The notes: a model not told the origin generated them from the sequence alone. A DNA stretch of 64,000 bases from Candidatus Zhuqueibacterota bacterium (GCA_029262035.1 JAJDAE010000247.1:12517-76516); one strand, 5' to 3'. Shown: positions 24,040 to 45,208, counted from the first letter of the stretch. Made by a program: numbers and translations.

Positions 24040-24051
24040 ATTTTGTCAAAG

Positions 24052-24114
24052 TTCATTCCGGTTGCTTCGTGCTGAGAGATCTGTAAATCGCAACCGGAAT
24101 GAATTTCACGTTTT
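24052..24114 (+). terminator. strong hairpin terminator
   Basis: A 14-bp perfect inverted repeat TTCATTCCGGTTGC...GCAACCGGAATGAA with a 24-nt loop is followed by TTTCACGTTTT. Confidence 0.6.
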
Positions 24115-24162
24115 ACAATTCAGTTATCTCTTAACCACACTTCGGTTTTACTAGAAAATCAT

Positions 24163-27339: not shown

Positions 27340-27407
27340 GTGGGTGAACTTCAAGTAGGTTCTCGGAAGTTTTTAACTTCTCTTACAGGACTAAGGTTGA
27401 ATATTAA

Positions 27408-30400
27408 ATGAGAATGGAAAATTTTTTAAGTAAGAAAAAATATCTCCAGGTTTTATTCATAATATTATTTTTGTCTGGTAATTTATTGGGTCAGTTTGGC
27501 CCCGATGCTTATAATCATCCGGAGCTCGATTGGTACACCATTGAGACAGAACACTTTTTTGTCCATTTTCACAAAGGCACTGACCGTACAGCCAAAGTTA
27601 TTGCAAAAATAGCAGAGGATATTTATACACCGGTCACCTCACTTTATGAATATGAAGCAGATTCAAAAATTCATTTTATTATCAAGGATTATGAAGACTA
27701 TTCCAATGGTGCGGCTTTCTACTATGATAATAAAATAGAAATTTGGGCATCTGCTATGGATTTTGAATTGCGGGGTTCCCACAATTGGCTACGCAACGTT
27801 ATTACCCATGAATTTACCCACATGATTCAGATTGGCGCCTCCAGAAAAATTACGCGCCATGTTCCTGCAGTCTATTTCCAGGCCATTGCTTATGAAACCG
27901 AAAGGCGAGAGGATGTAATTCGTGGAGCGCCGAATACAGTTGTGTCTTATCCAATTGCGATGACGGTTATGCCAAGTTGGTACGCTGAGGGTGTCGCACA
28001 ATTTCAAATTACCGGTTTAGATTATGAAGATTGGGATGCTCACCGCGATATGATCCTGCGTACCTCGGTGCTTGAGGATAAGGTGCTGACTTATACGCAG
28101 ATGGGTGGTTTTGGAAAAAATAGCATTGGCAATGAAAAGGTCTATAATCACGGTTATGCCTTTGTTGGCTACCTTGTTAAGAATTTTGGTTTGAAATCGC
28201 TTCAACAAATTTCAAAGGAAATGAAAGGCTTTCACCGGGTAACCATCGATGGTGCCATGGAAAAAGTGACAGGTAAGAGTGCTTCCACACTTTATAACGA
28301 TTGGATTGAGGAAATAACAGCTCAGTACAAGTCTCAATTGCGGGATATTACTGAGAATCGGGTTGAAGGTGAAATTATCGAGAAAAAGGGTATTGGTAAT
28401 TTTAACCCGACCTGGGGGCCAGATGATATCAGTTTGGTTTATCTGTCTAGTTTTGAACATAATCGTCTTTCCAGTACCGGATTTAAAGCTGTGGGGCCTC
28501 TTGTTAAAAACAACAAGAAGAAAAAACTATGGGTAAGTCATGATCTTGACTGGTCGCCGGATGGAAAGAGATTGGCTTATGCTCACAAAGACAAGCAAAC
28601 CAAAAGCGGTTCAAGATTTTTTGATATTTATATATATGATCTTCAGAGAGAAAAAGAAGAACGAATCACTCGTGGACTCAGGGCGCACAGTCCAACCTGG
28701 TCGCCGGATGCTCAGGAGCTGATTTTTATCGTGAATAATGATGGTACAGAAAACCTTGTTCGTATTGAGCTGGAGACAAAAAAATTAACCTATCTCACTG
28801 ACTTTAAATATGGTGAGCAAATTGCTCATCCTGATTGGTCGCCGGATGGACAGCAGGTTTTATACTCTACTTTTATAAACAGTGGTCAGGATTTATTTCT
28901 TTTAGATCTGGAAACCAACAAGACAAAACCCTTACTTGCTGATGAGTACGATTCTCGCGATGGCGTTTATAGTCCTGATGGAAAAAAAGTCTATTTTAGC
29001 TGGGATAAAACCGGTATTTTCAATATTTATGAAATGGATTTGGAAACCAAAGGAATTGACCAGTTAACAAATGTTGTAGGCGGGGCTTTTATGCCCTCGG
29101 TAAACCGGAAAGGCGAGTTGCTTTTTTCAACATTTACAGCCGATGGGTACAAAATTGCAAAGCTGGAAAATCCCAAACCGATCAATCCGGAAAAAGCGAA
29201 TTATGCTATTTATGCAAATGAAACACAACTTGCATCTGCTGATAACAGTTTTTCTCCTTCTGCCATAGAAAAAATTAAAGCGCCGTATTATGACGATACT
29301 AAATTTTCTAATTATGAGGTAAGTCCTTATAAAACAAAGTACTCCGATATTGCTTTTATGCCACGAGTTATGGTGGATTACGGCACCCTAAAGCTCGGCA
29401 CGTATGCTTATTCTTATGAGGTACTGGAAAAATTTGGATTTCTGGCTGGCTTTGATTTGAATTCGAGATTGGATTATGACTTGTTTGCTTTGGTAGAATA
29501 CAAGAAGTTCAGCCCGACCATTTTTGCTGAGTTTTATAATCAGGTTCAAAATATTAAATTTGATGTAGATTCTACAGAACAAATTGTGAGGGGCATATTC
29601 AACTTGAATAATCCCCAGGATAAGTTTAAATATAATTTAATGGAAATTAACATCGGGCTGGATCAGAAAATTATTAATCGCTACCATACGCTTCGAGCGT
29701 CCTTTATTCATAGTCGTTATGCGACTTCGGTAAAATTTCAAGCCCCGGTTGGAGAACAAACGTTTAAGTACAAATATTTTTTGGGATACGATTTATCGTT
29801 AAAATATACGTACGATACGTTTGGCTTTAGTCGGTTTTTTGAAATAGACCCCAAAGGTCGATTTTTTGAGTTCCGCTACGAGAGAGAGTTTAATAAATTT
29901 TTGGTTGACTTTGCTACGGAGCGAGTTGTAAGTGCTGAAATTTTTGAGAACTACAATTATAACAAATTGACATTGAATTATAAGGAAAATATACCATTCT
30001 TTTTTAAAGGTCATACATTGAATTTGGATGTAAATGGTGGATTTATTGATACAAAGGTTGACAGCTTTTTTAATTTCTTTGCCGGCGGTATTATAGGTAA
30101 TAGGGGATACCCGTATTACAGCATTGAGGGGAGAAAAATGCTACAAGGCAAACTGACCTACCGGTTCCCATTATTTAATAAACTCGATATGCGTTTTATG
30201 CATCTCTACTTTGATAAAGTCTATCTCAGCGCATTTTATGATTACGGCAATGCATTTGATGAAGACAAAATTGATTTTGGCGATTTCAAGTCAAGCGTTG
30301 GCGGCGAGCTTAGGATGGATTCGTTTTCGTTTTATTCATTTCCAACAAAACTTTTTTTTAGTGCCGCCTATGGATTAGATCGGTTTGAATTTGCTGATCA

Positions 30401-30458
30401 GGTTTATGGCAAGGATTGGCGTTTTTATTTTGGTGTTTCTTTTGGTTACCTTGAATAG
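27408..30458 (+). CDS. 1016-aa outer-membrane multidomain protein (paralog A): MA-clan (M1-like) metallopeptidase domain, TolB/PD40 beta-propeller, C-terminal Omp85/D15-like beta-barrel
   Basis: Signal peptide. ITHEFTHMIQ (HExxH) is followed by WYAEGVAQF (compare M1 WLNEGFA). PD40 repeats are WSPDGKRLAY, WSPDAQELIF, WSPDGQQVLY and YSPDGKKVYF. The Y/F-rich C-terminal 400 aa carry GNRGYPYYSIEGRKMLQGKLTYRFPLF (Omp85 L6-like RGY...E.RFP) and an alternating aromatic C-terminus. Confidence 0.6.
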   Translation: MRMENFLSKKKYLQVLFIILFLSGNLLGQFGPDAYNHPELDWYTIETEHFFVHFHKGTDRTAKVIAKIAEDIYTPVTSLYEYEADSKIHFIIKDYEDYSNGAAFYYDNKIEIWASAMDFELRGSHNWLRNVITHEFTHMIQIGASRKITRHVPAVYFQAIAYETERREDVIRGAPNTVVSYPIAMTVMPSWYAEGVAQFQITGLDYEDWDAHRDMILRTSVLEDKVLTYTQMGGFGKNSIGNEKVYNHGYAFVGYLVKNFGLKSLQQISKEMKGFHRVTIDGAMEKVTGKSASTLYNDWIEEITAQYKSQLRDITENRVEGEIIEKKGIGNFNPTWGPDDISLVYLSSFEHNRLSSTGFKAVGPLVKNNKKKKLWVSHDLDWSPDGKRLAYAHKDKQTKSGSRFFDIYIYDLQREKEERITRGLRAHSPTWSPDAQELIFIVNNDGTENLVRIELETKKLTYLTDFKYGEQIAHPDWSPDGQQVLYSTFINSGQDLFLLDLETNKTKPLLADEYDSRDGVYSPDGKKVYFSWDKTGIFNIYEMDLETKGIDQLTNVVGGAFMPSVNRKGELLFSTFTADGYKIAKLENPKPINPEKANYAIYANETQLASADNSFSPSAIEKIKAPYYDDTKFSNYEVSPYKTKYSDIAFMPRVMVDYGTLKLGTYAYSYEVLEKFGFLAGFDLNSRLDYDLFALVEYKKFSPTIFAEFYNQVQNIKFDVDSTEQIVRGIFNLNNPQDKFKYNLMEINIGLDQKIINRYHTLRASFIHSRYATSVKFQAPVGEQTFKYKYFLGYDLSLKYTYDTFGFSRFFEIDPKGRFFEFRYEREFNKFLVDFATERVVSAEIFENYNYNKLTLNYKENIPFFFKGHTLNLDVNGGFIDTKVDSFFNFFAGGIIGNRGYPYYSIEGRKMLQGKLTYRFPLFNKLDMRFMHLYFDKVYLSAFYDYGNAFDEDKIDFGDFKSSVGGELRMDSFSFYSFPTKLFFSAAYGLDRFEFADQVYGKDWRFYFGVSFGYLE

Positions 30459-30470
30459 ATAAATAGGTTT

Positions 30471-31343
30471 ATGATGAAAGTAGTAGTTTTCTGTTTGTTA
30501 TTAGTTTTTGTGTTTGGGTTCGGAAATGTCACGGCTAAGGAAAAAACTAACAGCGAATTAAATGCTTTGGTAACAGCGCGTTCGGAATTTAAAGTTCGTT
30601 TAAAACAAAGTATTGAAACAACCCCCAATATTTCACTGTTTACTCAGGGAGAAACTGCAGGAGGTAAATCGGTTAAAAAGAGTGTGCTATTTTCTGCTAT
30701 TGTGCCGGGTGCCGGGCAAATTTATGCTAATTCCTACATCAAAGGTTTCTTGTTTCTAGGCGTTGAAATTGCTGCAATCGCATTAAATTTAAATTATGAT
30801 AAGAAGGCAAATGATTTTGAGGATGAATTCGAAGGGGTCGCAAATGCACAATGGGATGAAAATTCCTATTGGGACTGGATTGCACAAATAAGCAGTTTAG
30901 ATAGAAGCAATAAATCTGCTCTACGTGACTATGAACGTCGTACCTTTAGCCACTTCTTACCTAATATTATAAATCAACAATATTATGAGAATGTTGGAAA
31001 GTATAACCAATTTATTTATGGCTGGAATGATTTCAGAGACCAGCTGGGGTCCAGGATATTTACTCTTGAGGATTATCTAAATAAAGCATTTGACTCCGAG
31101 AGCTTGGATACTATTTCTCCAACGAGAGTGGGGTATGTGCAAATCCGTAAAGAGTCCAATGATAACTTTAAGAAAGCCACCACGATGACAACAATTATTA
31201 TGTTTAATCATATTTTAAGTGCCATTGACGCCGGGCTAACCACTAAATTCCATAATCGTAAATTCACAGCCGAGCTGAACATGCAAGGCAAGCTCTACAA
31301 CGAAGAACTGGTGCCGGTCTTGGCTTTAGGAGTGCTTTGGTAA
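30471..31343 (+). CDS. secreted/membrane-associated protein, DUF5683-like (paralog 1 of a tandem pair)
   Basis: Signal peptide. Motifs LFSAIVPGAGQIYANSY and MFNHILSAIDAGL are shared with the next gene. It is 13 nt downstream of paralog A. Confidence 0.35.
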   Translation: MMKVVVFCLLLVFVFGFGNVTAKEKTNSELNALVTARSEFKVRLKQSIETTPNISLFTQGETAGGKSVKKSVLFSAIVPGAGQIYANSYIKGFLFLGVEIAAIALNLNYDKKANDFEDEFEGVANAQWDENSYWDWIAQISSLDRSNKSALRDYERRTFSHFLPNIINQQYYENVGKYNQFIYGWNDFRDQLGSRIFTLEDYLNKAFDSESLDTISPTRVGYVQIRKESNDNFKKATTMTTIIMFNHILSAIDAGLTTKFHNRKFTAELNMQGKLYNEELVPVLALGVLW

Positions 31344-32135
31344 ATGATTAGATTTGAAAATTATAACATCCCTATTTCTTTGATGGTTTTGTTAGTACTG
31401 CTATCTTTAAATGCGTTGCATGCTCAACCGCTATTGAGAGGTGGCTCTGACAAGTTAAAAATAAAACAAGAAATAATTCACGCAGCCGTGAGCCGCTACA
31501 ACTCAATTGAAGAAAATACAATGGCTGGTCAGACTTTTCAGGATAGACCCGTATTAAAATCAAGAGGAAGAGCATTTTTGCAGTCGTTGCTTTTGCCCGG
31601 ATGGGGTCAACATTACGCCAATTCTAAACGAACTATGCGGTTTTTTATTTTAACGGAAGTACTTACCGTCGGTAGTTATGTTGGTTTCAGAACCTGGGGT
31701 AATTGGCTGGAAGATGATTATCGTGCATTTGCGGTTACCCATGCCGGTGTAGATTTAAAAGGAAAAAAGGATGATTATTTTGTCGATATCGGAAATTTTG
31801 ATAACATTGCGGACTATAACCAGGCGCAACTACGCGATCGGGACTTAATTGATGTTTATCGAAATACTGAAGCATTCCATTGGCAATGGGACAATAGCCA
31901 AAATCGTGATAAGTTTGAAGATTTACGTATTCGAAGTGATCGCGCCTCCAACAACTCGGAATTTGCATTAGCCGCAATCTTTTTAAATCATCTGGTTAGT
32001 GCGATCCATTCCACTCTTTCAGTTTACAAATACAATAAAAAGTTAAGTGAAAATGAAACAGGCTTTAATTTGAACTTTAAGTATGATCATAGAAGCCAGC
32101 TACTGGCTCTCAACATTTCAAAGACATTGCAATAA
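31344..32135 (+). CDS. secreted/membrane-associated protein, DUF5683-like (paralog 2)
   Basis: Signal peptide. Motifs LLLPGWGQHYANS and FLNHLVSAIHSTL. It is adjacent (1-nt gap) to paralog 1. Confidence 0.35.
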   Translation: MIRFENYNIPISLMVLLVLLSLNALHAQPLLRGGSDKLKIKQEIIHAAVSRYNSIEENTMAGQTFQDRPVLKSRGRAFLQSLLLPGWGQHYANSKRTMRFFILTEVLTVGSYVGFRTWGNWLEDDYRAFAVTHAGVDLKGKKDDYFVDIGNFDNIADYNQAQLRDRDLIDVYRNTEAFHWQWDNSQNRDKFEDLRIRSDRASNNSEFALAAIFLNHLVSAIHSTLSVYKYNKKLSENETGFNLNFKYDHRSQLLALNISKTLQ

Positions 32136-32141
32136 CTTCGA

Positions 32142-32819
32142 ATGGATGTGAAATTAGCCAAAAAGACGGCGGCAATTGAGGCTGTTAATTACGTTGAGAA
32201 TGGCTTTATTGTGGGCTTAGGGACTGGTTCGACAGCGTATTTCGCTATTCAGGAGATAGCTACTCGTATTAAACAAAAAGTTTTAACCATTTCGGGGGCT
32301 GTATCCACATCGCTACAAACGGAACAAATTGCCAGACAGGCAAATATCCCATTACTAAATAGTTTTGAGAAAATTGATATAACCATCGACGGTGCCGATG
32401 AGATTGATCCCAATGGCAATTTAATTAAAGGCGGTGGTGCTGCGCTTACCCGAGAAAAGATTGTAGCAGCCGCAACTGAAAATTTAGTGATAGTTGTCGA
32501 TCAGTCAAAGTTGGTAAAGAAGCTTGGAGCCTTTCCGCTTCCGCTTGAAATTTTGCCTTTTGGTTGGGAAACCACCTATAAAAAAGTTGAATCTTTTGGT
32601 TGTAGAATTGGTGTCAGGAAAGCAGACCATAAGTTGGTTATAACCGATAATGGCAATTATGTTTTTGATTGCAAATTTTTGGAGATTGATGAACCTGAGA
32701 AGCTCAGTGTCGAGTTAAATCAGATACCGGGCGTTGTAGAAAATGGGCTTTTTATTGGTTTGACAAAAACAGCTATTGTAGGCAGAGAAAACCAAAATAC
32801 CGAAATAACCAGATTTTAG
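32142..32819 (+). CDS. rpiA: ribose-5-phosphate isomerase A
   Basis: GLGTGSTA and DGADEID motifs. Length is 225 aa. Confidence 0.85.
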   Translation: MDVKLAKKTAAIEAVNYVENGFIVGLGTGSTAYFAIQEIATRIKQKVLTISGAVSTSLQTEQIARQANIPLLNSFEKIDITIDGADEIDPNGNLIKGGGAALTREKIVAAATENLVIVVDQSKLVKKLGAFPLPLEILPFGWETTYKKVESFGCRIGVRKADHKLVITDNGNYVFDCKFLEIDEPEKLSVELNQIPGVVENGLFIGLTKTAIVGRENQNTEITRF

Positions 32820-32868
32820 TTCCACCCATAATACCCCCACCATTCCCTGTGAGGGTGTTACACAATAA

Positions 32869-33828
32869 TTAACTTTTAGAAATAGCGTACTTTTTCATTT
32901 TGAAGCGTAGTGTAGCTTCCGGAATACCCAAAAGCTTAGCTGCTTTCACCTGATTTCCAGCAAATTTACCCAGCGCTTTTTTAATGAGAAATGTTTCAAC
33001 TTCTGTGATAACGCCTTTCAAGTTTTTGACCTCTAAAAAGTCAAGTGGATGACGTTTAATTTCAAAAGGTAGAAATTCAGTTGAAAGTTCGCCATTAGGC
33101 GACATCATTACCAGGTTTTCAACGCAGTTTCTCAATTCACGGATATTTCCTTTCCAATCGTATTCAAGAATTGATTCGAATATTTCTGCAGGAACAGCAG
33201 GAATTTCGATTTCATTTTCATGGCAATAGTTCTTTAAAAATGAAACGAATATTTCAGGAATATCTTGTTTCCGCTCACGCAAAGAAGGAATTGTTACGGA
33301 AAGAGGATTTAATAAAAAGTAAAAATCCTTGCGGAAGGTACCATTTTCAATATCGTTTTCCATTTCAGCGGCGCTGGCTGAAATAACCCGGATGTCCAAG
33401 GAGATATTTGTTTTTCCGTTAATCCTCCGAAAGGTATTTTCTTTGATGGCCTGAAGCAATTCAAATTGAAACTCCATACTTGTTTCGTTGATGTTATCAA
33501 GAAATAGTATCCCGTTGTTGGATCTTTCAAGAAGACCAATTGTACGCTGGATTGTACCTTCAAGCTCGACTTCTTGTCCGAAAAGATCTTTCTTGTCAAG
33601 TGTAAAACCCAAAGCAGAGCAATTAACCATTACGAATGGTTTATTTTTGCGCGTACTTAATGAGTGTATCGTTCTGGCTGTGTGCTCCTTGCCTGTGCCT
33701 GTGTCACCAATAATTAGAATGTTGCTATTAACCTTGGCAAATTTTTTGACAGCCCTATTAATCCTTTTGGCTTCAGGACTATTGCCCGTAAAGTACTCCT
33801 TGTAAATATCTGAGTCCGTTGTAATCAT
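32869..33828 (-). CDS. sigma-54-activator-like AAA+ transcriptional regulator (bEBP central domain plus Fis-type HTH). It lacks both an N-terminal sensory domain and the GAFTGA motif.
   Basis: Walker A is IIGDTGTGKEHTAR. R-finger/sensor II region is GNIRELRNCVENLV. The C-terminal HTH is KAAKLLGIPEATLRFKMKKY. The position of ESELFGHEKGAFTGA reads KKDLFGQEVELEGTIQ. Confidence 0.7.
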   Translation of the reverse strand: MITTDSDIYKEYFTGNSPEAKRINRAVKKFAKVNSNILIIGDTGTGKEHTARTIHSLSTRKNKPFVMVNCSALGFTLDKKDLFGQEVELEGTIQRTIGLLERSNNGILFLDNINETSMEFQFELLQAIKENTFRRINGKTNISLDIRVISASAAEMENDIENGTFRKDFYFLLNPLSVTIPSLRERKQDIPEIFVSFLKNYCHENEIEIPAVPAEIFESILEYDWKGNIRELRNCVENLVMMSPNGELSTEFLPFEIKRHPLDFLEVKNLKGVITEVETFLIKKALGKFAGNQVKAAKLLGIPEATLRFKMKKYAISKS

Positions 33829-33853
33829 TTAACTAACCCTCAAAAGTTAATAA

Positions 33854-34927
33854 TTATGTGTTAATTTTATTTTTAAAGTTGACAAAGTTTCCGCTATTTA
33901 GTCGTTTTTGGTATAAGGCACTCACGTAAAACAATAACGCAAGCATTCCAATTGATAAAACTGTCATGTTGATTTTGATGAAAATTGAGTTGCTAAAATA
34001 GTTTATAAAAAAAGTTAGTAGCAACATTGAAAAACCAATAGAGTTTCTTTTCTCATGAAAATAAATTTTTAAAAATTGAATAAAAGCATTCTTTTTGCGC
34101 TTAATTGGAACACCATAAACATCACCGTAAGAAATAATGGAGCTGTAAAGTTGTCCAATATCTGAGTATGAATAATTAATAAGACGAAACAGAGTAATCG
34201 AAAAAAATGAAAGACTGATAAGTAAAACGTACTGCGTGTATTTGAAAATGATTATGTTATAAACAGTACCAATTAAATTTGTAATATCCATAATGGTTAC
34301 TATAAAAAAGCAAATCATTAGGGTATTTATATGTTCTCCGAGCGATAGATCAAATTTATATAACAGTGCTCCAAAAAATACCAGAAAGAATAAAGGGAGG
34401 AAGTCAAAAAGAATAACACTTTTATATAATAGCGCATCTTCTACTTCAAGGATGAATTCCTTGTCAGCTATGAATGGAAAGTAATTCCAAATTAATGTTG
34501 GTATTGTTAAGGCAAAGGAGAATAGATAGATTTTTAAGTCAGAACTTGTTTTGAAAATATATTTTAACGTGATGAATATAACGCAGAATGCAGGGAGGAA
34601 ACTCAGAGTGATATATTTGTATTCAAAAAAGAAATAGCGAAGATAATCGTCCCCATAGAGAAAATTCTCACCAACAAAAATATCGGTAAAACTTAAGCTG
34701 TGTAAAAATGCAAAAATACCAATATTTAAGAAAATATTTTTGTTGGCGTTTCCTAGTTTATATAAGGCAATGGTTTGTAGAAAGATCAAAAAATATACCG
34801 AACAGTTAAGCCAGGAAAATACCGGCACTACTTGATGGGGTAGATTAGAAATGATTATCAGAAGCAAAATAAATGATAACCACCAATTTACTATTTTTAT
34901 GTGAATACTTTGATTCTTTTTTAACAT
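33854..34927 (-). CDS. polytopic integral membrane protein (about 8-10 TM helices), candidate membrane sensor coupled to the downstream AAA+ regulator
   Basis: Highly hydrophobic 357-aa ORF rich in F/I/L segments. Same strand and 25 nt upstream of the regulator gene. No conserved catalytic motif seen. Confidence 0.5.
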   Translation of the reverse strand: MLKKNQSIHIKIVNWWLSFILLLIIISNLPHQVVPVFSWLNCSVYFLIFLQTIALYKLGNANKNIFLNIGIFAFLHSLSFTDIFVGENFLYGDDYLRYFFFEYKYITLSFLPAFCVIFITLKYIFKTSSDLKIYLFSFALTIPTLIWNYFPFIADKEFILEVEDALLYKSVILFDFLPLFFLVFFGALLYKFDLSLGEHINTLMICFFIVTIMDITNLIGTVYNIIIFKYTQYVLLISLSFFSITLFRLINYSYSDIGQLYSSIISYGDVYGVPIKRKKNAFIQFLKIYFHEKRNSIGFSMLLLTFFINYFSNSIFIKINMTVLSIGMLALLFYVSALYQKRLNSGNFVNFKNKINT

Positions 34928-34988
34928 GACCCGAACAGAAAGTTCAAAGTTAGTAAATTCCCTGCGACATTCACAACAAACAATGCCC

Positions 34989-35255
34989 CTAGCGTTTCTT
35001 TCTTTTCTTACGTCGCGGCTTTGGTTTTTTTGCTGGTGGTGGCATAGGATCTCGCAAGCTCACCTGAGTTATATTCTGAGAATCTTTAGATCCCATTTGA
35101 CTAGTTGGAGCAAACGCTGTAGTAGCTGCTTCACTCAGTTCAAATTTCGTTAGAAATGAAGTGAGCTTTTCTTGATTGTCAAAAGCTGTGAAGACAGTAA
35201 TGAAAACAAAGTACAGTGAAAAAGTTGTAGCGACAGCGAACAGTTTTTTCTTCAT
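34989..35255 (-). CDS. small secreted or membrane-anchored protein with an extreme polybasic C-terminal tail
   Basis: 88 aa. The N-terminal hydrophobic signal/anchor is MKKKLFAVATTFSLYFVFITVFTAF. The C-terminus is PMPPPAKKPKPRRKKRKKR. Confidence 0.4.
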   Translation of the reverse strand: MKKKLFAVATTFSLYFVFITVFTAFDNQEKLTSFLTKFELSEAATTAFAPTSQMGSKDSQNITQVSLRDPMPPPAKKPKPRRKKRKKR

Positions 35256-35492
35256 AGGCCCTCCTAAAAAATATGAAGAACTTTCTGTCCGAGCCCTTTG
35301 GTTTAAATTTGCAATTTATGCAATAAAAAGGTGCATAAATTACAAAAGAGAATGAACCAAGTTGAAAAAATGTTTCGACGATTTGATGAAAAGGAAAAAA
35401 GTATGCGTCGACACCATTCTCTATATATAATAAGGAAGAAATTTTGGATTGTCAATAATTTTTTTAAGATTATTCGTAGGTTTTTAAGGATA

Positions 35493-37100
35493 CTAGTTTA
35501 ATTGTCGGGCTAAGGATAGCAGGTCATGTGCCTCCGGAAAATAATTTATACCGCTATTCAATTGCTTATCTCTAAGCAAGTTCACCCTGAGTTGAGCAGT
35601 TTTTCCCCAAATCATATATGCCATCTCTCTTTTTAGGAGAAATTGAATGTTTTTAATATTATCTGCATTTTTCAGGTTATTCATGTTCTCGATATTATCG
35701 TAATGAACCGCGAATTTCAGAAAGTCATTTAATATTTCATTTGTTACTTCAAAACTTTTTATAAATCGTTTTTCCCCTCTTTTTTCTATTTGTGGATTTT
35801 TTGCCCGAAATGTTTCTATGTATGCATGAAACGAACGTTTTTTTGAATAGAACAGTTTTCTTAAAGTTTCTGAAAGTGTATTGTTATCATTTTTAATCCA
35901 AATGTCGGGCTTAATGCCCCCATCTGCGTAAACTTTTCGTCCTAACAATGTGTGAAACTCTGCTTGCAGGCTATTATCATATTGAGAAATTGAGTCGTTA
36001 TACGCCTCTCTGTAATATTCATCTTTAGTTTTGGCGAAAAAATTTCTTTGGATAGGTCTGCCACTCGGCGTATAATACTTAGCTGTGGTTATTAAGAGTG
36101 CTGAGCCATCATGGAAACGGTATTGGCTTTGAACAAGACCCTTGCCAAAACTTGTTTTGCCTATGATCAAGCCTCTGTCAAGATCTTGAATTGCGCCTGC
36201 TACTATCTCAGATGCGCTGGCAGAACCATGGTCAATTAATACAATCATTGGAAACAGTTCATGGGTTTTAGCAGCGGTTGAGCGGAATTCTTGGTAAGAA
36301 CTGGCTAACCGGCCTTTGGTTGTCACAATGTTGTTACCTGCAGGAATGAATTTGTCAGTTACTTCAACAGCGGCATTTAAATAACCACCACTGTTACCTC
36401 GTAAATCTAAAACCAGATAGGTCATGCCTTTCTGCTTCAATTCTTTCAAAGCTTGATCTAGTTCCCGGGATGTTGTTGAGGTGAAACGATCGATTTTTAT
36501 ATAGCCAATATTTTGTTTTACCATCAAAGCAAACGGGATGCTTTGTAAAAGTATTCTTTCACGAATTAATTGTATTTCACGTGGTTTGGAAGATTGTAGA
36601 TTTTGTAAAGTTAGAGTAATGGGTAATCCCGGTGGACCGTTCAACTTTGCAACTATGTTTTCTTTTGGAATATTGGTTACATCATCTCCGTTTATTTTTA
36701 ATATTTTATCGCCGGGATGAATACCATATTTTTCTGCGGGACTTGAATCCAGAATGGACATTATAGTCACTTTTCCATTAATTATTTCAAAGCCGATACC
36801 AATGCCGGTATATCCTTCAAAATTTTGATTCCAATTGGTGAAATCGTTTGCGGGCAGAAATACCGTGTGGGGATCCAAATTTTTAACCACGCCTTTTATG
36901 GCTTCCTCTATTAACTCTTCTGTAGTTTTTTCCTCTAAGTACGAGCGTTGAATAGTTTCCATAACAGAAGTAAAAATTTTAATCTGAGTATAAAAATTTT
37001 CAGTTTTGGCCATCAATTTAGGTAAATTTACTTCTTGGAGAATAAAGCCAATGGGTATAAAAATTAGACCTAAGATGAATATTATTTGCTTAGCACGCAT
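35493..37100 (-). CDS. ctpA: carboxyl-terminal processing protease (S41 family, PDZ-containing)
   Basis: S41 catalytic region DHGSASASEIVAGAIQD, with the Lys region GKTSFGKGLVQS. A PDZ segment and an N-terminal TM anchor are present. Confidence 0.8.
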   Translation of the reverse strand: MRAKQIIFILGLIFIPIGFILQEVNLPKLMAKTENFYTQIKIFTSVMETIQRSYLEEKTTEELIEEAIKGVVKNLDPHTVFLPANDFTNWNQNFEGYTGIGIGFEIINGKVTIMSILDSSPAEKYGIHPGDKILKINGDDVTNIPKENIVAKLNGPPGLPITLTLQNLQSSKPREIQLIRERILLQSIPFALMVKQNIGYIKIDRFTSTTSRELDQALKELKQKGMTYLVLDLRGNSGGYLNAAVEVTDKFIPAGNNIVTTKGRLASSYQEFRSTAAKTHELFPMIVLIDHGSASASEIVAGAIQDLDRGLIIGKTSFGKGLVQSQYRFHDGSALLITTAKYYTPSGRPIQRNFFAKTKDEYYREAYNDSISQYDNSLQAEFHTLLGRKVYADGGIKPDIWIKNDNNTLSETLRKLFYSKKRSFHAYIETFRAKNPQIEKRGEKRFIKSFEVTNEILNDFLKFAVHYDNIENMNNLKNADNIKNIQFLLKREMAYMIWGKTAQLRVNLLRDKQLNSGINYFPEAHDLLSLARQLN

Positions 37101-37467
37101 ATAAGCACCCGTTGTGAGTTTAAATAAATTTTCCAGTCAGAGGAATTTTCTTCAAAAAAAATGTATTTAATATAAGTAGTGAAACATTAAATGATTCAAA
37201 AAATGCACTGATAATTGAGCCATATCAAAATTGTGCTATAATATCTATCGGAAAATTACAACCAAAAATTAACTTGATAGAGGTGCATATTTTGTTAAAT
37301 TGTAGCAAAGAATTTGGAAGATATTTTGTTATGGACGATAACCCTTTTCGAAGTGACCTTCTTGAGAAAATGTATTTCTGCCCTATTTCATCTTAAGTTT
37401 TTATGGATTTAATAATTCAATTTTGTCTCACCAAAGACAGTTATCCACCAACCAAAAGAGTTGTAGT

Positions 37468-40443
37468 ATGATAAATATAAAGCTTGTCCGAAATAGCATT
37501 ATTCTTGTTTGTATTTTATGTATTTCGTCTGGGGCTTTTTCGCAATACTATTTTGGAAGAAACAAAATCCAGTACGATGATTTTCGCTGGAATATTTTAA
37601 AGACTGAGCATTATGACGTTTATTTTTATCCGGAGATGCGGGAACTTGCGGAAATAGGGGCAGCCATGGCCGAGGATGCGTATACGCGCCTGGAAAGCAA
37701 GTTGAACCACAACATCACACGCAGAATTCCTCTGATTTTTTATTCAAACCATATTCATTTCCAGCAGACAAATACAATTCCTAATTTTATTTCGGAAGGT
37801 GTTGGCGGTTTTTTTGAATTTATAAAGGGTAGAGTGGTGATTCCCTCTACTGGTTCAATTCATGATTTCAAGCACGTTATTAATCACGAGATGGTACATG
37901 TTTTCACGCGTAGTAAATTAGGCAGGGGATATAAAGATCGCCGGAGAACCCTCTTTGCCGGCGCTCCTTTATGGTTTACTGAAGGCATCGCAGAATACTG
38001 GTCGGAAGGCTGGGATTCTCAAGCAGAAATGTTTATTCGCGATGCAATGTTAAGTGGGTATCTTGTGCCGGTTAGCCAGATGGACAGAATTTATGGTACC
38101 TTTTTAATGTATAAAGAGGGGCAGGCAATCTGTCGGTTTATTGCTGAAAATTTTGGTGAGGAGAAGTTGCTGCTGCTGCTGGAAAATGCCTGGAAAGCTG
38201 AACGTTTTTCGGAAGTGATGAAGCTGACAATTGGCCTTAACTACAAAGAATTTGATAAAAAGTGGATTTATGATTTAAAGAAGAAAATTTATCCTTTGCT
38301 TGATGAAGGAGATGAACCCTACCAGGTAACCAAAGAGTTTACCCAGGCTGGGTTTAATACCAAGCCGGCATATTTCAAAAAGGATGGGGAAGACTGGGTA
38401 GCATTTACAGCAAATCGTATGGGCTATTCGAATATTTACATCAAACCTCTCGGCGTTAAAACTAAATCTCCCGAAGTTTTAGTTAAGGGGGAGCGCACTC
38501 CGGATTATGAATCCTTTTATTTGCTGAAAAGTAAGCTCGATGTTAATGATTCAGGAAAGCTTACGTTTATATCGAAAAGCGGTGCCAGAGATGCACTTTA
38601 TGTTTATGATATTTCAACCAGGGAAAATACCCGCAAATTTGATTTTCCCGATTTAGTTTCTTTGTCGTCGCCACATTGGTCACCCGATGAAAAGGTGATT
38701 GTTTTTTCCGGGAAGAGCTTTGCGGGACAACCCGATTTGTATACCTTGACAGTTGAAACCGGTGACCTGCAACGATTGACAAATGATTTTTATGATGATA
38801 AAGACCCTGAATGGTCGCCGGATGGTAAAACCATTGCCTTCAGTTCCGATCGGTCTTATTATGGTAAAGAAGGTGTCAAAAACTTGTTTTTGTACGAAGT
38901 GCTGACGGGACAGATACGCCATATTACCTGCGGACCCTACAACGATTTTTCACCCACATGGTCTCCCGATGGTCAAAATATTGTTTTTTCTTCTGATAGA
39001 GATGGCACTTTCAATCTATGGATGCTAAAAAATAATACGTTTAATTTTGAGCCGTTTGATGATAACAGCCTGGTTGTCGCCTCACTGGATAACGGTGATA
39101 TTCAACCTGACTACACAAAAAATGATGGGCAATTAGATAGTTTTGATTCGGTCGACGGAGTCTTGAAAAATTTGTACCCCTCAGCAATTGAGCCAGCCGA
39201 TGAAATAAAAAAGATAACCAATTTTACAACCGGTGCCCAGGATGCTGAATGGGTTGATAACAACAGATTGATTTTTTCAGCCTTTCAGGGATTCAGTTTT
39301 CAAATTCGGGAATTGAATGATATTCAAAAGAAATTTGCCGAGGCAGACACGGTCGTTCACGATGTGGTTACAGGAACGAACGATATTTGGGTTCCCAATA
39401 AAATTGTCGGCCAGGTAGATGCTACCCAGATAAAGTACAAAAAGAAATTCAATCTGGATATCGCCCAAAGTGCAATTGCACATGATCCGGTTTACGGTTC
39501 GACCGGTGGCGCCCAACTCGCTATGAGCGATATGCTTGGTAACCAGAAGTACTTTTTCCTTCTGTACAATAATGCTCAAAGGAGCAGTGAGTTTTTTAAA
39601 AGCTGGAATTTTGCGGTCACTCGGGTGGATCTAGGTCGCCGTGTAAATACAGCCGTTGGGTTGTTTAGAATTTCAGGCCGCTTTTTCGATCGGGTCGATA
39701 GTTTCTTTGACCAGGAAAGAGTCGGTGGGTTCGTTTCTGCCAGCTATCCTTTCTCAGTTTTTAACAGAATAGAAGGCAGTATCAGTTTACGAAAAGAACG
39801 TCGGGAGTATCTTAACAGAAGCATAAACGGTATCATCGCTTCTAATTCAATCTCTTATGTTAAAGATAATACGCTTTGGGGTGTTACCGGTCCGGTTGAT
39901 GGTGAACGATACAATGTTACAGTTGGTCATACACTCGATATTCAAAATAACGATGTTAGTTTTTTTACCTTTACAACCGATTACCGAAAATATTTTCGCT
40001 TAAGCCGGCGCACAACTTACGCCACGCGTGTAATGGGGAGATTTAATGTTGGCAAAGAATCTTTCCGCTATTTTATGGGTGGTAGCTGGGATTTGAGGTT
40101 GTATCCGCGATGGCGTATTTGGGGACGGAAATTATTTCTTCTAAATAATGAAGTGAGATTCCCTTTGCTGGATAGATTGATTCTGGGTTTTCCTTTTGGC
40201 GGTTTGGGTTTTGGCGGGTTTCAGGGAGCCGCTTTTGTAGATCTCGGTCAGGCTTGGGATAGTGAGTATCATTTCGAAGAGGTGTTGGGAAGCATGGGGC
40301 TTGGCATTCGTATGCGGTTTGGTGGGTTCCTGGTTTTAAGGTATGAAATTGGCCGTACTTTTCAAGTTAATGATTTAAGCAATCCTTCTATTCATTGGGA
40401 TAGCGGACTAAAAAAAGCATTTTGGTTTGGGCTTGACTTTTAA
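37468..40443 (+). CDS. ~990-aa outer-membrane multidomain protein (paralog B): MA-clan metallopeptidase domain, PD40 beta-propeller, Omp85/D15-like C-terminal beta-barrel
   Basis: Preferred start MINIKLVRNS... at 37468, with a signal peptide. The ORF track starts at 37423. VINHEMVHVF (HExxH) is followed by WFTEGIAEYW. PD40 repeats are WSPDEKVIVF, WSPDGKTIAF and WSPDGQNIVF. The C-terminal region has FMGGSWDLRLYPRWRIWGRKLFLLNNEVRFPLLD and the beta-signal-like end AFWFGLDF. Confidence 0.6.
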   Translation: MINIKLVRNSIILVCILCISSGAFSQYYFGRNKIQYDDFRWNILKTEHYDVYFYPEMRELAEIGAAMAEDAYTRLESKLNHNITRRIPLIFYSNHIHFQQTNTIPNFISEGVGGFFEFIKGRVVIPSTGSIHDFKHVINHEMVHVFTRSKLGRGYKDRRRTLFAGAPLWFTEGIAEYWSEGWDSQAEMFIRDAMLSGYLVPVSQMDRIYGTFLMYKEGQAICRFIAENFGEEKLLLLLENAWKAERFSEVMKLTIGLNYKEFDKKWIYDLKKKIYPLLDEGDEPYQVTKEFTQAGFNTKPAYFKKDGEDWVAFTANRMGYSNIYIKPLGVKTKSPEVLVKGERTPDYESFYLLKSKLDVNDSGKLTFISKSGARDALYVYDISTRENTRKFDFPDLVSLSSPHWSPDEKVIVFSGKSFAGQPDLYTLTVETGDLQRLTNDFYDDKDPEWSPDGKTIAFSSDRSYYGKEGVKNLFLYEVLTGQIRHITCGPYNDFSPTWSPDGQNIVFSSDRDGTFNLWMLKNNTFNFEPFDDNSLVVASLDNGDIQPDYTKNDGQLDSFDSVDGVLKNLYPSAIEPADEIKKITNFTTGAQDAEWVDNNRLIFSAFQGFSFQIRELNDIQKKFAEADTVVHDVVTGTNDIWVPNKIVGQVDATQIKYKKKFNLDIAQSAIAHDPVYGSTGGAQLAMSDMLGNQKYFFLLYNNAQRSSEFFKSWNFAVTRVDLGRRVNTAVGLFRISGRFFDRVDSFFDQERVGGFVSASYPFSVFNRIEGSISLRKERREYLNRSINGIIASNSISYVKDNTLWGVTGPVDGERYNVTVGHTLDIQNNDVSFFTFTTDYRKYFRLSRRTTYATRVMGRFNVGKESFRYFMGGSWDLRLYPRWRIWGRKLFLLNNEVRFPLLDRLILGFPFGGLGFGGFQGAAFVDLGQAWDSEYHFEEVLGSMGLGIRMRFGGFLVLRYEIGRTFQVNDLSNPSIHWDSGLKKAFWFGLDF

Positions 40444-40450
40444 GTATCTC

Positions 40451-41614
40451 ATGACAGAAAAAATTAAATATATCTTCATTTTGCTGTTTTGTTTTCTTGC
40501 GTTTTTCTCCTGTAAGAAAACATTAAAAGTGGATCCAATTTATCTTACAGAAATTAGTGATGAAGATTGGCCGCTTTATGGTAACTCACCTGAAAGAAGT
40601 AATTACAGTGCGACTTCACTTAGCCCGCCTCTTAAAAATTTGTGGACATACAAGGCATCCTCTGCAATAAGCCCCGTATTAGTAGCGGCAAATGGTATCG
40701 TTTATGCTAATACGCTAGATGGTCGTCTCGATGCGATCGATATCAAAACCGGTAATCGCATTGGCCAAATTAAAACCAATGAAAGTATTGAAACGTCAAG
40801 TGCTTTTTTTGATGGAGATCTGTTTATTGTTTCCAGATTTGGTACTGAAACTTTGGCACGTATGGATCTTGAAACAGCCCGGTTTTTGTGGCGAACCAGT
40901 GCTGGAGATATTGCCACAGAACCACTAGTCGATAACTCGGGTGTTTATGTATCAGCAATTTATCGGCATATTGATAAATACGATTTAGAAACCGGTGACC
41001 AGCTATGGAGCTATAAAACCGAAGACCAATTGCATTCGTCGCCGGCACTTTCTGAAAAAACTGTTGTTGTGGGCAGCGATGATGGAACCATTTATGCCTT
41101 AAACACCCAGGACGGTACTTTAAACTGGAAAATGGATACAGACGGGGCGATATTTTCAACACCAATTATTTACGACGGGCAAATTTTTGTTGGTTCTCTG
41201 GATAGTACCTTCTATGCTATCAATTTAAATGATGGTACACTTAGTTGGAAATATAAAACGAACTATCCAATATTTCAAACCGCTGCAATTAGTCAAGGAG
41301 GAGATGTATTTTTTGGCGATAGTAACGGATCATTCTATAGCCTGAGACAAGATTCAGGAAAACTGAATTGGACATTTAGCGCATACAGCAGCATAAGCAC
41401 CTCCCCTTTGGTGGCAGGTGAGATTGTTTATTTCGGTTCCTTGGATCAGAAATTTTATGCTTTATCTGCAAATGATGGAAAAGAACTATGGAATTTCACC
41501 GCCCAGGGAAGAATTCGGACAGCGCTTGTGATTTGGAAAGATTATTTGATTGGGGCATCTGAGGATAAATACATTTTTTGTTTTAAACCTGAAAAAGAGA
41601 TGGTTATTAAGTGA
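40451..41614 (+). CDS. PQQ-repeat beta-propeller lipoprotein, BamB-like
   Basis: Lipoprotein signal ...FLAFFSC. There are repeated PQQ-type blades: GTIYALNTQDGTLNWK, TFYAINLNDGTLSWKY, SFYSLRQDSGKLNWTF and KFYALSANDGKELWNF. Its start overlaps the end of paralog B. Confidence 0.6.
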   Translation: MTEKIKYIFILLFCFLAFFSCKKTLKVDPIYLTEISDEDWPLYGNSPERSNYSATSLSPPLKNLWTYKASSAISPVLVAANGIVYANTLDGRLDAIDIKTGNRIGQIKTNESIETSSAFFDGDLFIVSRFGTETLARMDLETARFLWRTSAGDIATEPLVDNSGVYVSAIYRHIDKYDLETGDQLWSYKTEDQLHSSPALSEKTVVVGSDDGTIYALNTQDGTLNWKMDTDGAIFSTPIIYDGQIFVGSLDSTFYAINLNDGTLSWKYKTNYPIFQTAAISQGGDVFFGDSNGSFYSLRQDSGKLNWTFSAYSSISTSPLVAGEIVYFGSLDQKFYALSANDGKELWNFTAQGRIRTALVIWKDYLIGASEDKYIFCFKPEKEMVIK

Positions 41615-42435
41615 GTAGATCAGTTTCTTATAAATTTTCGATAGTATTAATTTTACTCTGTTTTTTTAATCTTGTCGTTTTTTCAGAACTTTCGATTGCC
41701 TCTGGAATAGATGACGTTGGGTATTTAAAAATTAATGCAAAACATAAAGGTCTGGAAGTTAAACTGGATGGTAAGACTATTGGATACACGCCACTTAATA
41801 TTTTAGCAGTTCCGGTTGGAACCCATGCGATTAGTGTTGCTCATTTTGACAAGAATAATTGGTTGGGGAAAACCTGGCTCAATGAAGTAATGATTGCAGA
41901 TGGAGATACAACATTTCTTCAGGTAAATTTCAAAAAAAGTCTCTCGGTTAACTCTTCACCATACGAAGCGGAGGTTTTTATTGAAAATCGGTTTGTCGGA
42001 GAAACTCCATTCTTTTTTGAGATGGATGAAGGCGAAAGTACGAGCATCACATTAAAAAAGAGAAGTTATAAGGATACCACTTTTACCATAAATGCTACGG
42101 ATTTTGAAAAAATTAATGTTCAACTAAATGAAGTAACTAAAACTAAAAACATGATTCTTCGCGATAGATTTGAGGTTGCGAAAGTCAAGACTAATAAAAA
42201 TAGATTTTTGTGGACACTTGGTGCATCCGTTTTGTCCGGAGCATTAACGTTGTATTTCCGTACCAAGGCAGATGATAAATATAACCGCTATCGCAAAACA
42301 GGAAACCCGGATTCATTTAACGGTCTTTACGACGATGCTAAGAAATTGGATAAATTTGCCGCAGTTTCATACGGAACTTTCCAGGTGAGTTTTGTTTTCT
42401 CTTTTTACTTTTTCTTTGCTTATAAAAATCAATAG
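41611..42435 (+). CDS. PEGA-domain protein with a C-terminal TM anchor
   Basis: Two PEGA-like units: GLEVKLDGKTIGYTPLNILAVPVGTHAISV and EVFIENRFVGETPFFFEMDEGESTSITLKK. C-terminal TM helix. 4-nt overlap with the BamB-like gene. Confidence 0.45.
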   Translation: MSRSVSYKFSIVLILLCFFNLVVFSELSIASGIDDVGYLKINAKHKGLEVKLDGKTIGYTPLNILAVPVGTHAISVAHFDKNNWLGKTWLNEVMIADGDTTFLQVNFKKSLSVNSSPYEAEVFIENRFVGETPFFFEMDEGESTSITLKKRSYKDTTFTINATDFEKINVQLNEVTKTKNMILRDRFEVAKVKTNKNRFLWTLGASVLSGALTLYFRTKADDKYNRYRKTGNPDSFNGLYDDAKKLDKFAAVSYGTFQVSFVFSFYFFFAYKNQ

Positions 42436-44397: not shown

Positions 44398-44400
44398 TGA

Positions 44401-45168: not shown

Positions 45169-45208
45169 GCTGGTAACTCAGAATAGCCGACAAAACTAAT
45201 CCCCGCTA

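Follow-up and report, generated by a model that had tools for sequence, protein, structure and literature searches.

Two genes in a 64,000-nucleotide stretch of DNA from a Candidatus Zhuqueibacterota bacterium (GCA_029262035.1, JAJDAE010000247.1:12517-76516; here called the window) raise the question of what a protein that joins a zinc peptidase to a β-propeller and an outer membrane β-barrel does in the cell envelope. Both lie on the plus strand and encode paralog A (27408..30458; 1,016 aa) and paralog B (37468..40443; 991 aa); the ORF of B first opens at a TTG codon at 37423, but with translation from ATG 37468 the protein begins with a normal signal peptide. From the N to the C terminus, A comprises a signal peptide, a Peptidase_MA_2 gluzincin domain, a six-bladed PD40 propeller, a linker, and a 16-stranded Omp85-type barrel, as judged from Pfam matches, an AF2 model, and orthologs. 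B has the same architecture by Pfam and NCBIfam searches, an AF2 model, and homologs. BLASTP aligned A with B over 562 aa at 24% identity (E value, 2e-28), with an additional segment in the barrel (8e-6), and hhalign paired the peptidase domains with a probability of 99.2% and the C-terminal halves of the barrels with a probability of 96.7%. The original prediction of two colinear paralogs of about 1,000 residues, each combining a gluzincin, a PD40 propeller, and an Omp85-type barrel, is borne out by these results, and the alignments indicate that A and B are distant, anciently diverged paralogs, homologous from end to end.

The peptidase domain spans about residues 37 to 316 in A (27516..28355; Pfam and AF2) and about residues 40 to 290 in B (37585..38337; PF13485 match and ortholog alignment). 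PF13485 (Peptidase_MA_2) scored 36.7 bits in B, against a Pfam cut-off of 32.4; the score for A, 29.4 bits, falls just under the cut-off, and all 42 of the 42 A orthologs matched the family. B also matched Peptidase_M9 weakly. A carries HEFTH at residues 134 to 138 (nt 27807-27821), followed by WYAEGVA at 191 to 197, which includes Glu194 (nt 27987-27989); the corresponding motifs in B are HEMVH at 140 to 144 (nt 37885-37899) and WFTEGIA at 169 to 175, with Glu172 at nt 37981-37983. Both motifs had been predicted in each protein, but at a separation of about 40 residues; in fact, the Glu comes 28 residues after the second His in B and 56 residues after it in A, where an extra β-hairpin (residues 154 to 184) separates the helices bearing HExxH and the Glu in the AF2 model. 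With HExxH, a downstream Glu, and the PF13485 match, A and B are assigned by sequence to the clan-MA gluzincins, and similarity of the motifs suggests that Glu194 and Glu172 provide the third zinc ligand.

The further description of the domain as M1-like proved too specific. The Glu of A and B lies in a W-x-x-E-G-(I/V/F)-A helix resembling the WLNEGFA of M1 enzymes. In M1, however, this Glu falls 19 residues after the second His (HExxH-X18-E), whereas the intervals in B and A are X27 and X55, and the M1 N- and C-terminal domains are missing. GxMEN was not found upstream of HExxH, where B has GGFFE and A has NGAAF, and a Pfam search of both proteins returned no Peptidase_M1 (PF01433) match at an E value of 0.1 or less. 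M1 aminopeptidase identity was therefore rejected. Conservation of the site is strict: H134, E135, H138, W191, E194, and G195 of A are invariant in 42 orthologs, as are H140, E141, H144, W169, E172, and G173 of B in 44. HExxH and WxxEG also occur at fixed spacing in 79 of 80 species loci of the B type, down to 41% identity to B, the sole exception being a locus cut at its 5' end. Such strict conservation suggests that catalysis, rather than scaffolding, is the selected function.

The propeller occupies residues 322 to 586 of A (28371..29165), where about 24 strands form six TolB-like blades, and residues 301 to 616 of B (38368..39315), also six-bladed, with an acidic insertion modeled at low confidence (residues 527 to 567). 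Pfam found PD40 in both. Three to four WSPDG blade motifs had been anticipated, and the count of (W/Y)SPD(G/A) motifs, four in A and three in B, agrees with this, within propellers that have six blades each. In every search, the TolB-like propeller gave the strongest signal. TolB identity was rejected, since the TolB equivalog model TIGR02800 scored 107.6 and 126.9 bits for the two proteins against a cut-off of 343.15, in alignments confined to the propeller region; moreover, A and B lack the N-terminal α/β domain of TolB. Pfam matches to Tricorn_N, Tricorn_2nd, and DPPIV_N were also found. As in tricorn protease and the S9 enzyme DPP-IV, the propeller adjoins a peptidase domain; unlike in those proteins, the catalytic domain is a gluzincin and not a serine peptidase. 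In tricorn protease and S9/DPP-IV, the propeller admits only unfolded chains or peptides to the active site.

A different reading of the same domains is that the peptidase is a degenerate pseudoenzyme used for binding, in a noncatalytic, TolB-like tether to the outer membrane or peptidoglycan. The subthreshold Peptidase_MA_2 score of A, the unusual spacing of the zinc ligands, and the dominance of the propeller signal would all fit, but none of the 86 aligned orthologs departs from the two His residues, the catalytic Glu, or the WxxEG Glu, and the fixed spacing across the species loci points the same way. Pseudoenzymes normally lose such catalytic and zinc-binding residues, and we consider this reading very improbable.

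In both AF2 models (A, pLDDT of 82.5 and pTM of 0.81; B, pLDDT of 75 and pTM of 0.58), a linker of about 50 to 60 residues leads into a C-terminal barrel of 16 long strands with the BamA/TamA fold, in agreement with the barrel originally proposed. It covers residues 649 to 1012 of A (29352..30443) and 682 to 989 of B (39511..40434). The C terminus of B alone matched PF01103 at 29.8 bits (cut-off, 24; E value, 5.5e-7). The only named Omp85-family match in NCBIfam was the generic model NF047779, which B hit at 34.6 bits (E value, 1.5e-8), under its 200-bit cut-off. A itself did not match PF01103, which was matched by 4 of its 42 orthologs (best E value, 1.8e-6); the C terminus of A gave six PDB matches, all to TamA (best E value, 0.0017), across FFAGG..RGY..FxDxGNAF. 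Omp85 barrels are defined, from BamA, by a loop-6 (V/I)RG(F/Y) motif and a strand-13 (F/G)xDxG motif. A has GGIIGNRGY in loop 6 and FYDYG in strand 13; B has a variant loop 6, DLRLY, in which R877 is invariant and Y879 nearly so, together with FVDLG, and FxDxG is present in 73 of 80 B-type loci. An RGY...E.RFP motif had been claimed for both proteins: RGY holds for A and EVRFP for B, but B has DLRLY in place of the former and A has YRFP in place of the latter. The predicted β-signal of B, AFWFGLDF, is present at its C terminus.

The 16-stranded barrel, the loop-6 Arg-aromatic pair, and the strand-13 FxDxG motif are shared with BamA and TamA, as is, in B, the aromatic β-signal. A and B are nevertheless not orthologs of either: they lack POTRA domains, whose place is taken by some 600 residues comprising the enzyme and the propeller. 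Pfam matched no POTRA domain in A or B, and no β-α-α-β-β unit was found between propeller and barrel in either AF2 model. Omp85 subfamilies without POTRA are recognized (PMC4104836), so by this absence A and B differ from BamA, TamA, TpsB, and PlpD without falling outside the Omp85 superfamily. The retained Omp85 motifs could indicate a dedicated insertase or translocase, in which the barrel is a BamA/TamA-like machine, the propeller a BamB-type scaffold, and the peptidase a device that processes or proofreads specific clients. Against this stand the strictly conserved zinc site, suggestive of selection for catalysis and not scaffolding, and the lack of POTRA, which to our knowledge is the substrate- and lipoprotein-binding module in all characterized Omp85 insertases and translocases. 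On balance, an insertase function seems unlikely.

The arrangement had been thought undescribed, but it was already catalogued in 2014 and hence is not new: Heinz and Lithgow (Front Microbiol 5:370, PMC4104836) defined a "WD40-like Omp85" subfamily, and their Table S3 covers about 100 members, each with a best WD40 match, TolB, and a best aminopeptidase match. The latter are tricorn factor F3, aminopeptidase A, collagenase, and ERAP1 (templates 1z5h, 4kxd, 4ar1, and 3qnf; about 99% confidence); Phyre matched the barrels to BamA (4k3b) and TamA (4c00), and PD40 was modeled on TolB (2w8b). The main text of that paper treats the WD40 part alone and proposes a BamA-BamB-like fusion, which would favor the insertase reading. 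Like the listed members, A and B have an Omp85 barrel, PD40/TolB-like repeats, and an N-terminal peptidase, with no POTRA recorded, and they differ from the published description in nothing architectural. We conclude that A and B are members of WD40-like Omp85, assigned by architecture. A single genome often encodes more than one member of the subfamily, with three paralogs in Caldithrix abyssi, where H1XQ58, H1XRH5, and H1XP27 are listed, three in Ignavibacterium, and four in Rhodothermus (PMC4104836); the phyla match those of the relatives found here. The phyletic survey recovered more than 4,000 homologs of B, and within the FCB superphylum its relatives occur in at least 595 species genomes; among the full-length relatives are proteins from Caldithrix, Calditrichia, Ignavibacterium, and Rhodothermales, the taxa of the listed members. 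In 2024 the subfamily was mentioned and treated as uncharacterized (PMC11358297, PMC11116518).

B and the two genes that follow it are tightly spaced or overlapping. In 66 of 69 loci, the gene immediately 3' of the B ortholog encodes a PQQ-repeat β-propeller lipoprotein (40451..41614 in the window, plus strand; PQQ_2 E value, 3e-43), and a PEGA-domain gene (41611..42435, plus strand; E value, 2e-17) is detectable next in 43 of 60; these loci come from KSB1, Calditrichota, Ignavibacteriota, Bacteroidota, Kryptonia, Marinimicrobia, and Rhodothermales. Translational coupling throughout had been predicted. It stands for the PEGA gene, whose GTG at 41611 overlaps the lipoprotein stop by 4 nt, but the lipoprotein probably starts at ATG 40451 (MTEKIKYIFILLFCFLAFFSC, with the lipobox FFSC), 7 nt past the B stop; only a TTG start at 40427 would make it overlap B. 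The synteny, conserved over several phyla, supports the suggestion that B, the lipoprotein, and the PEGA protein form a dedicated envelope module. The divergently oriented neighbor of B (35493..37100, minus strand), which encodes a CtpB-like S41 peptidase containing a PDZ domain, is retained only in closer relatives of the KSB1/Calditrichota type. Amylase genes also lie near B.

The lipoprotein has the PQQ-type, BamB-like propeller fold and a lipobox; it was not identified as BamB, the equivalog model TIGR03300 scoring 173.1 bits against a cut-off of 285.2. BamB is a lipoprotein propeller that binds POTRA3 of BamA. A second BamB-like protein, cotranscribed with B, would suit an insertase, but the docking site it would need is absent from B. 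The five residues after the lipid-modified Cys in the partner lipoproteins average 0.10 D/E versus 0.93 K/R, so that the partner appears to lack an acidic surface-export signal; the rule for this signal was drawn from Bacteroidota and may not hold in the present lineage. The PEGA protein has an N-terminal signal or anchor and, at its C-terminal end, two hydrophobic helices with a loop rich in Lys and Arg between them.

These features bear on the possibility that the barrel translocates or displays its own peptidase-propeller passenger, yielding a surface protease that serves nutrient acquisition or processing at the surface. Type V secretion likewise has the passenger at the N terminus and the barrel at the C terminus, a linker precedes the barrel, A adjoins surface-protein genes of the T9SS, and the amylase genes near B would be in keeping with such a role. 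Loop 6 plugs the lumen of Omp85 barrels, however, and its motif is conserved in A and B; neither protein has a ShlB (PF03865) or TpsB-type match in Pfam; and the partner lipoprotein and the predicted inner membrane helices of the PEGA protein argue for the other side of the membrane. PlpD, formerly the type for "type Vd secretion," likewise has a hydrolase N-terminal to an Omp85 barrel, although it has a POTRA domain and a patatin lipase, and A and B carry a zinc peptidase and a propeller with no POTRA. It is the only enzyme-Omp85 fusion tested for topology, and its patatin domain proved periplasmic and not secreted, the barrel serving as a scaffold (PMC11116518). This weakens the proposed PlpD-style translocation, and we judge self-export improbable. 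The PlpD precedent, the nonacidic lipoprotein N terminus, and the PEGA helices together lend indirect support to a periplasmic orientation.

A lies in a different setting. The conserved order is a PorV-like barrel gene (22966..24039; Pfam), an FG-GAP protein with a T9SS C-terminal sorting domain (24163..27339) directly upstream of A, A itself, and two genes for DUF5683-like membrane proteins (30471..31343 and 31344..32135), all on the plus strand. The upstream pair recurs in loci L087, L088, and L089, whose A orthologs are 46 to 48% identical, and the downstream pair recurs in matching order in these and in L001. Two DUF5683-like paralogs had been predicted after A; both are present, but their matches (33.0 and 20.8 bits; cut-off, 26.7) and their mutual similarity (E value, 1e-5) are weak. 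That PorV-like and T9SS cargo genes flank A in four lineages might mean that T9SS-linked outer membrane or surface proteins are clients of an insertase; the PorV-like barrel and the sorted cargo are also compatible with a cell-surface role. No description of the conserved partner genes of A or B was found in the literature searched, and neither the PQQ lipoprotein with PEGA nor the PorV-like, T9SS cargo, and DUF5683 set is mentioned in the passages of PMC4104836 examined.

The explanation that we favor, with a probability of roughly 55%, is that A and B are outer membrane-anchored, periplasm-facing, propeller-gated metallopeptidases of an envelope complex. Each would be exported by its Sec signal peptide and anchored by its POTRA-less, 16-stranded barrel, which would tether the enzyme to the outer membrane. 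The clan-MA zinc peptidase, predicted to be competent, would sit beside the six-bladed TolB-type propeller, most likely on the periplasmic side, where the propeller may keep all but unfolded chains or peptides away from the active site. BepA, YcaL, and LoiP are M48 zinc proteases that act on stalled outer membrane proteins at BAM, and BepA, a zinc metalloprotease of the periplasm that is recruited to an Omp85 machine, may offer a functional parallel (PMC13067283); it differs from A and B in being a separate soluble protein of another peptidase family, with TPR repeats and no fusion. In the manner of BepA at BAM, A and B could act in turnover or quality control of envelope proteins. B would do so with two cotranscribed partners, the periplasm-facing PQQ-propeller lipoprotein and the PEGA protein with its predicted inner membrane helices, and A would belong to a separate cluster with the PorV-like barrel, the T9SS-sorted FG-GAP protein, and the two DUF5683-like proteins.

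A bolder and more doubtful extension is that the B trio is an unrecognized envelope-spanning proteolytic machine of the FCB superphylum, with A, in parallel, a T9SS-linked component of surface attachment. If so, B would be the barrel-tethered zinc protease, the lipoprotein its periplasmic adaptor, and the PEGA protein an inner membrane-anchored subunit; A would act with the PorV-like barrel, the FG-GAP protein bearing the sorting domain, and the DUF5683-like proteins. The B trio would then carry out outer membrane protein quality control or turnover in lineages without the proteobacterial BepA/BamB arrangement.

Both open reading frames lie where the original prediction placed them. Paralog A (27408..30458, plus strand) encodes 1016 aa; paralog B (37468..40443, plus strand) encodes 991 aa from the ATG at 37468, which gives a normal signal peptide, and its frame opens earlier, at a TTG at 37423. 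The predicted layout of gluzincin, propeller, and Omp85-type barrel agreed with domain searches, so the domain-level observation was real and correctly read. Peptidase_MA_2 and PD40 repeats were matched in each protein (Pfam), TolB-type propeller similarity was found far under the TolB cut-off (NCBIfam), and the generic Omp85_fam model matched B with an E value of 1.5e-8 (NCBIfam). Scanned alone, the C-terminal 391 residues of B scored 29.8 bits with Pfam Omp85 against a cut-off of 24; the C-terminal region of A did not pass that cut-off. The Omp85 RGY motif is present in A but not in B, where DLRLY stands instead. BLASTP aligned 562 residues of A and B at 24% identity (E 2e-28), with a separate barrel segment, and profile-profile comparison of the two ortholog families matched the peptidase domains with 99.2% probability and the barrels, in their C-terminal half, with 96.7%. 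By these sequence comparisons, A and B are true but distant paralogs.

Chance ORFs or a mobile element were ruled out by the housekeeping neighbours and by thousands of full-length homologs; the window is a chromosomal housekeeping context, with DnaG, PDH E1, biotin carboxylase, and RpiA nearby, and belongs to an uncultured relative of KSB1/Calditrichota. An Rfam scan of the window found 0 RNA families. After the hydrophobic leader, the ortholog alignments show an invariant Gln, Gln29 in A (window 27492) and Gln26 in B (37543), the latter being the first residue of an invariant stretch, QYYFGRNK. The invariant Gln residues would fit the "Q-rule" of Bacteroidetes, by which substrates of signal peptidase I carry an N-terminal pyroglutamate.

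The H-E-x-x-H and W-x-x-E-G motifs are invariant in the A ortholog alignment and in the B ortholog alignment, and both occur at fixed spacing in 79 of 80 species loci, down to 41% identity; the single exception is a locus cut at its 5' end. This conservation argues against a pseudo-enzyme. The ligand geometry had been misjudged, however: in place of a distance of about 40 aa, the second His and the Glu are separated by 28 residues in B and 56 in A, and this spacing differs in both from the M1 arrangement that had been assigned to them.

AlphaFold2 models were built with 42 to 44 orthologs per alignment and had a pLDDT of 82.5 and pTM of 0.81 for A, and a pLDDT of 75 and pTM of 0.58 for B. The two models are alike: a mainly helical peptidase domain comes first, about 24 strands are consistent with six propeller blades, a linker of 50 to 60 residues is modelled with low confidence, and exactly 16 long strands form the C-terminal region, as expected for the predicted 16-strand barrel. 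Among the 80 species loci, 77 of the 78 complete genes encode an aromatic last residue, typically in ...FFFGWDF. The A C-terminus gave six matches among PDB sequences, all TamA (best E 0.0017), with the alignment spanning FFAGG..RGY..FxDxGNAF; PF01103 was matched by 4 of 42 A orthologs, and the Omp85-type nature of the A barrel is backed also by homology to the B barrel and by the 16 modelled strands. A phmmer search of the B barrel alone against PDB sequences returned 0 matches. Profile searches of PDB sequences with the full-length A and B family alignments were dominated by TolB, and the top 50 Foldseek matches of the full A model in the PDB were all propellers, uninformative for the barrel and the peptidase. 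Within the B propeller, some 40 residues rich in Asp and Asn, NNTFNFEPFDDNSLVVASLDNGDIQPDYTKNDGQLDSFDSVDG (aa 527-567; 39046..39168), form an insertion that has a pLDDT of <50 and is not conserved in the family consensus. Protein insertion and translocation are the best-known functions of the Omp85 scaffold, and one reading of A and B is a BamA-like insertase that has its own BamB built in and a peptidase for proofreading. A beta-alpha-alpha-beta-beta POTRA unit is absent from both models, however, and we consider an insertase unlikely.

The arrangement had been put forward as undescribed, but it was already catalogued by Heinz & Lithgow (2014, PMC4104836). As set out in the subfamily scheme, domain table, and Table S3 of that paper, the Omp85/TpsB superfamily is split into ten subfamilies, one of which, "WD40-Omp85," combines PF01103 with one to five PF07676 repeats. 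Table S3 covers roughly 100 representatives, of which three come from Caldithrix abyssi and several from each of Ignavibacterium, Melioribacter, Rhodothermus, Salinibacter, and Chloroherpeton; their best WD40 hit is TolB (2w8b, 100%), and their best aminopeptidase hits, at about 99%, are tricorn factor F3 (1z5h), aminopeptidase A (4kxd), collagenase (4ar1/4ar9), and ERAP1 (3qnf). Hanson et al. (2024, PMC11116518) count the WD40-like subfamily among the uncharacterised "intriguing targets," the enzyme-fused Omp85 subfamilies. A and B are thus two new members of a catalogued, functionally uncharacterised subfamily, and the architecture is not new. NCBI names homologs "peptidase MA family metallohydrolase," "BamA/TamA family outer membrane protein," or "biopolymer transporter Tol." The literature searched yielded no functional study of peptidase-fused Omp85 proteins, nothing relevant on DUF5683 or on combinations of Peptidase_MA_2, PD40, and DUF5683, and no description of the conserved partner genes of A or B.

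The family is large. Scored homologs numbered over 4000 for the B type and over 2600 for the A type, and scanning a single genome for each GTDB species gave at least 595 confirmed loci, in KSB1, Calditrichota, Ignavibacteriota, Bacteroidota, Kryptonia, Neomarinimicrobiota, and Rhodothermales; several paralogs per genome are common in FCB superphylum carriers. Among the matches listed, the closest locus is on L001, a MAG contig with full synteny (identity 69% in B and 61% in A), followed by a "Caldithrix sp." MAG (68%) and a KSB1 MAG (67%). In six pairs, an A and a B ortholog come from contigs of equal length. Orthologs of A and B occur together on L001 (258,614 nt), one of these, and on the Calditrichaeota CLD2 contig QQUE01000014, which indicates that the duplication is old. 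Searched alone against 1.84 billion cluster representatives, the B barrel matched 127 clusters at E<=1e-30; the longer ones are mostly of 900 to 1035 residues with the barrel at the C-terminus, which ties this barrel type to the fused architecture.

A PQQ-repeat propeller lipoprotein gene (40451..41614, plus strand) lies directly 3' of B, and tblastn over the 80 species loci detected its counterpart directly after the B ortholog in 66 of the 69 with room for it; a PEGA protein, encoded next in the window (41611..42435, plus strand), was detectable after the lipoprotein in 43 of 60. Overlapping stops and starts had been predicted for the three genes, and the overlap stands for the PEGA gene, whose GTG overlaps the preceding stop by 4 nt, but not for B and the lipoprotein, where an overlap needs an unlikely TTG start. 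The lipoprotein ATG at 40451, 7 nt after the B stop, opens a lipoprotein signal ending in FFSC. In many genomes among loci L007-L086 the lipoprotein ORF reaches back beyond the 3' end of B, so an overlapping start is possible there; the upstream frame in these reads ...RMGFLM..., probably the conserved C-terminus of B, ...FFFGWDF, in another frame.

The lipoprotein scored 173 bits with the BamB equivalog model (cut-off 285). In 41 orthologs with a locatable Cys, the five positions after this lipid-modified residue hold a mean of 0.10 D/E versus 0.93 K/R. Acidic residues after the lipidated Cys mark lipoproteins for surface export in Bacteroidota; being basic there, the lipoprotein is suggested by this rule to stay on the periplasmic face. 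The C-terminal end of the PEGA protein has two hydrophobic helices with a Lys/Arg-rich loop between them; they suggest that the protein is anchored in the inner membrane and exposes its PEGA domains to the periplasm. BLASTP revealed no membrane module common to the PEGA and DUF5683-like proteins (E 0.42).

In closer relatives, as in the window, a CtpB-like S41/PDZ peptidase gene is divergent from B; the region concerned is 35493..37467 in the window, 6940..9646 in L001, and 6958..9740 in L005. The relatives carry a GGDEF gene between the two; it is missing in the window, where the gap is an AT-rich intergenic region of 367 nt. Genes for a GH13 alpha-amylase, an ABC ATPase, and a 544-aa protein without a Pfam match follow the PEGA gene (42613..46843), also in the closest relatives (L001 15467..19646). 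The amylase is not kept beside the three genes in more distant phyla and is therefore probably unrelated.

A lies in a different, conserved cluster of five genes (22966..32135), in the order PorV-like barrel (22966..24039), FG-GAP protein (24163..27339), A, and two DUF5683-like membrane proteins (30471..31343 and 31344..32135). The FG-GAP protein, of about 1050 aa, has a T9SS C-terminal sorting domain (Por_Secre_tail). This order is kept in a Calditrichaeota MAG, a KSB1 MAG, and a Zhuqueibacterota MAG (L087, L088, and L089), whose A orthologs are only 46 to 48% identical. The cluster resembles pairs of the PorV/PorU or PorQ/PorZ type, in which a barrel goes with a protein that retains its CTD. 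At about aa 265-285 of the FG-GAP protein, a stretch read by eye, TMALMFGNQLGLP, resembles the M6 (InhA-type) zinc motif HEFGHNLGLP with the His-Glu-x-x-His replaced; its orthologs have only faint Peptidase_M6 matches, and the region may be a degenerate pseudo-peptidase domain. Three other large, secreted-looking proteins end in a FlgD_ig-like C-terminal domain: a Sortilin/Vps10-like protein (102..3914), an ASH/DUF1573 Ig-like protein (47969..52111), and an FG-GAP/ASPIC protein (58545..61061). The FlgD_ig-like model also matches the T9SS-tail region of the FG-GAP protein of the A cluster, so the window may carry several T9SS cargo candidates.

Beyond the observed architecture, active-site conservation, and synteny, we propose that an A/B-type protein would be a zinc peptidase anchored in the outer membrane and facing the periplasm. 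This orientation is suggested by the usual topology of Omp85 N-termini, taken with the enzyme domain of PlpD, which was demonstrated to be periplasmic (PMC11116518), by the lack of an acidic export signal in the partner lipoprotein, and by the predicted inner-membrane helices of the PEGA protein. The same PlpD result and partner features speak against a surface protease displayed by its own barrel; the T9SS neighbourhood of A keeps a link to the cell surface possible, and we regard surface display as very unlikely. In the periplasmic arrangement the propeller would gate the peptidase, for which tricorn protease and S9/DPP-IV peptidases are the models, and the protein would work within a small envelope complex. 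A role in quality control or turnover is proposed by analogy with BepA, YcaL, and LoiP, which act at BAM (PMC13067283).

This family is large and ancient, its zinc site is strictly conserved, and it probably has an important function in the cell envelope. Since the architecture was catalogued before, the gain here is the partner genes: the lipoprotein and PEGA protein for the B type, and the PorV-like barrel, T9SS cargo, and DUF5683-like proteins for the A type, lead to testable hypotheses on the composition of each complex and the pathway served by each paralog. The conserved partner genes offer a way into the role of an enzyme-bearing, POTRA-less Omp85 protein.
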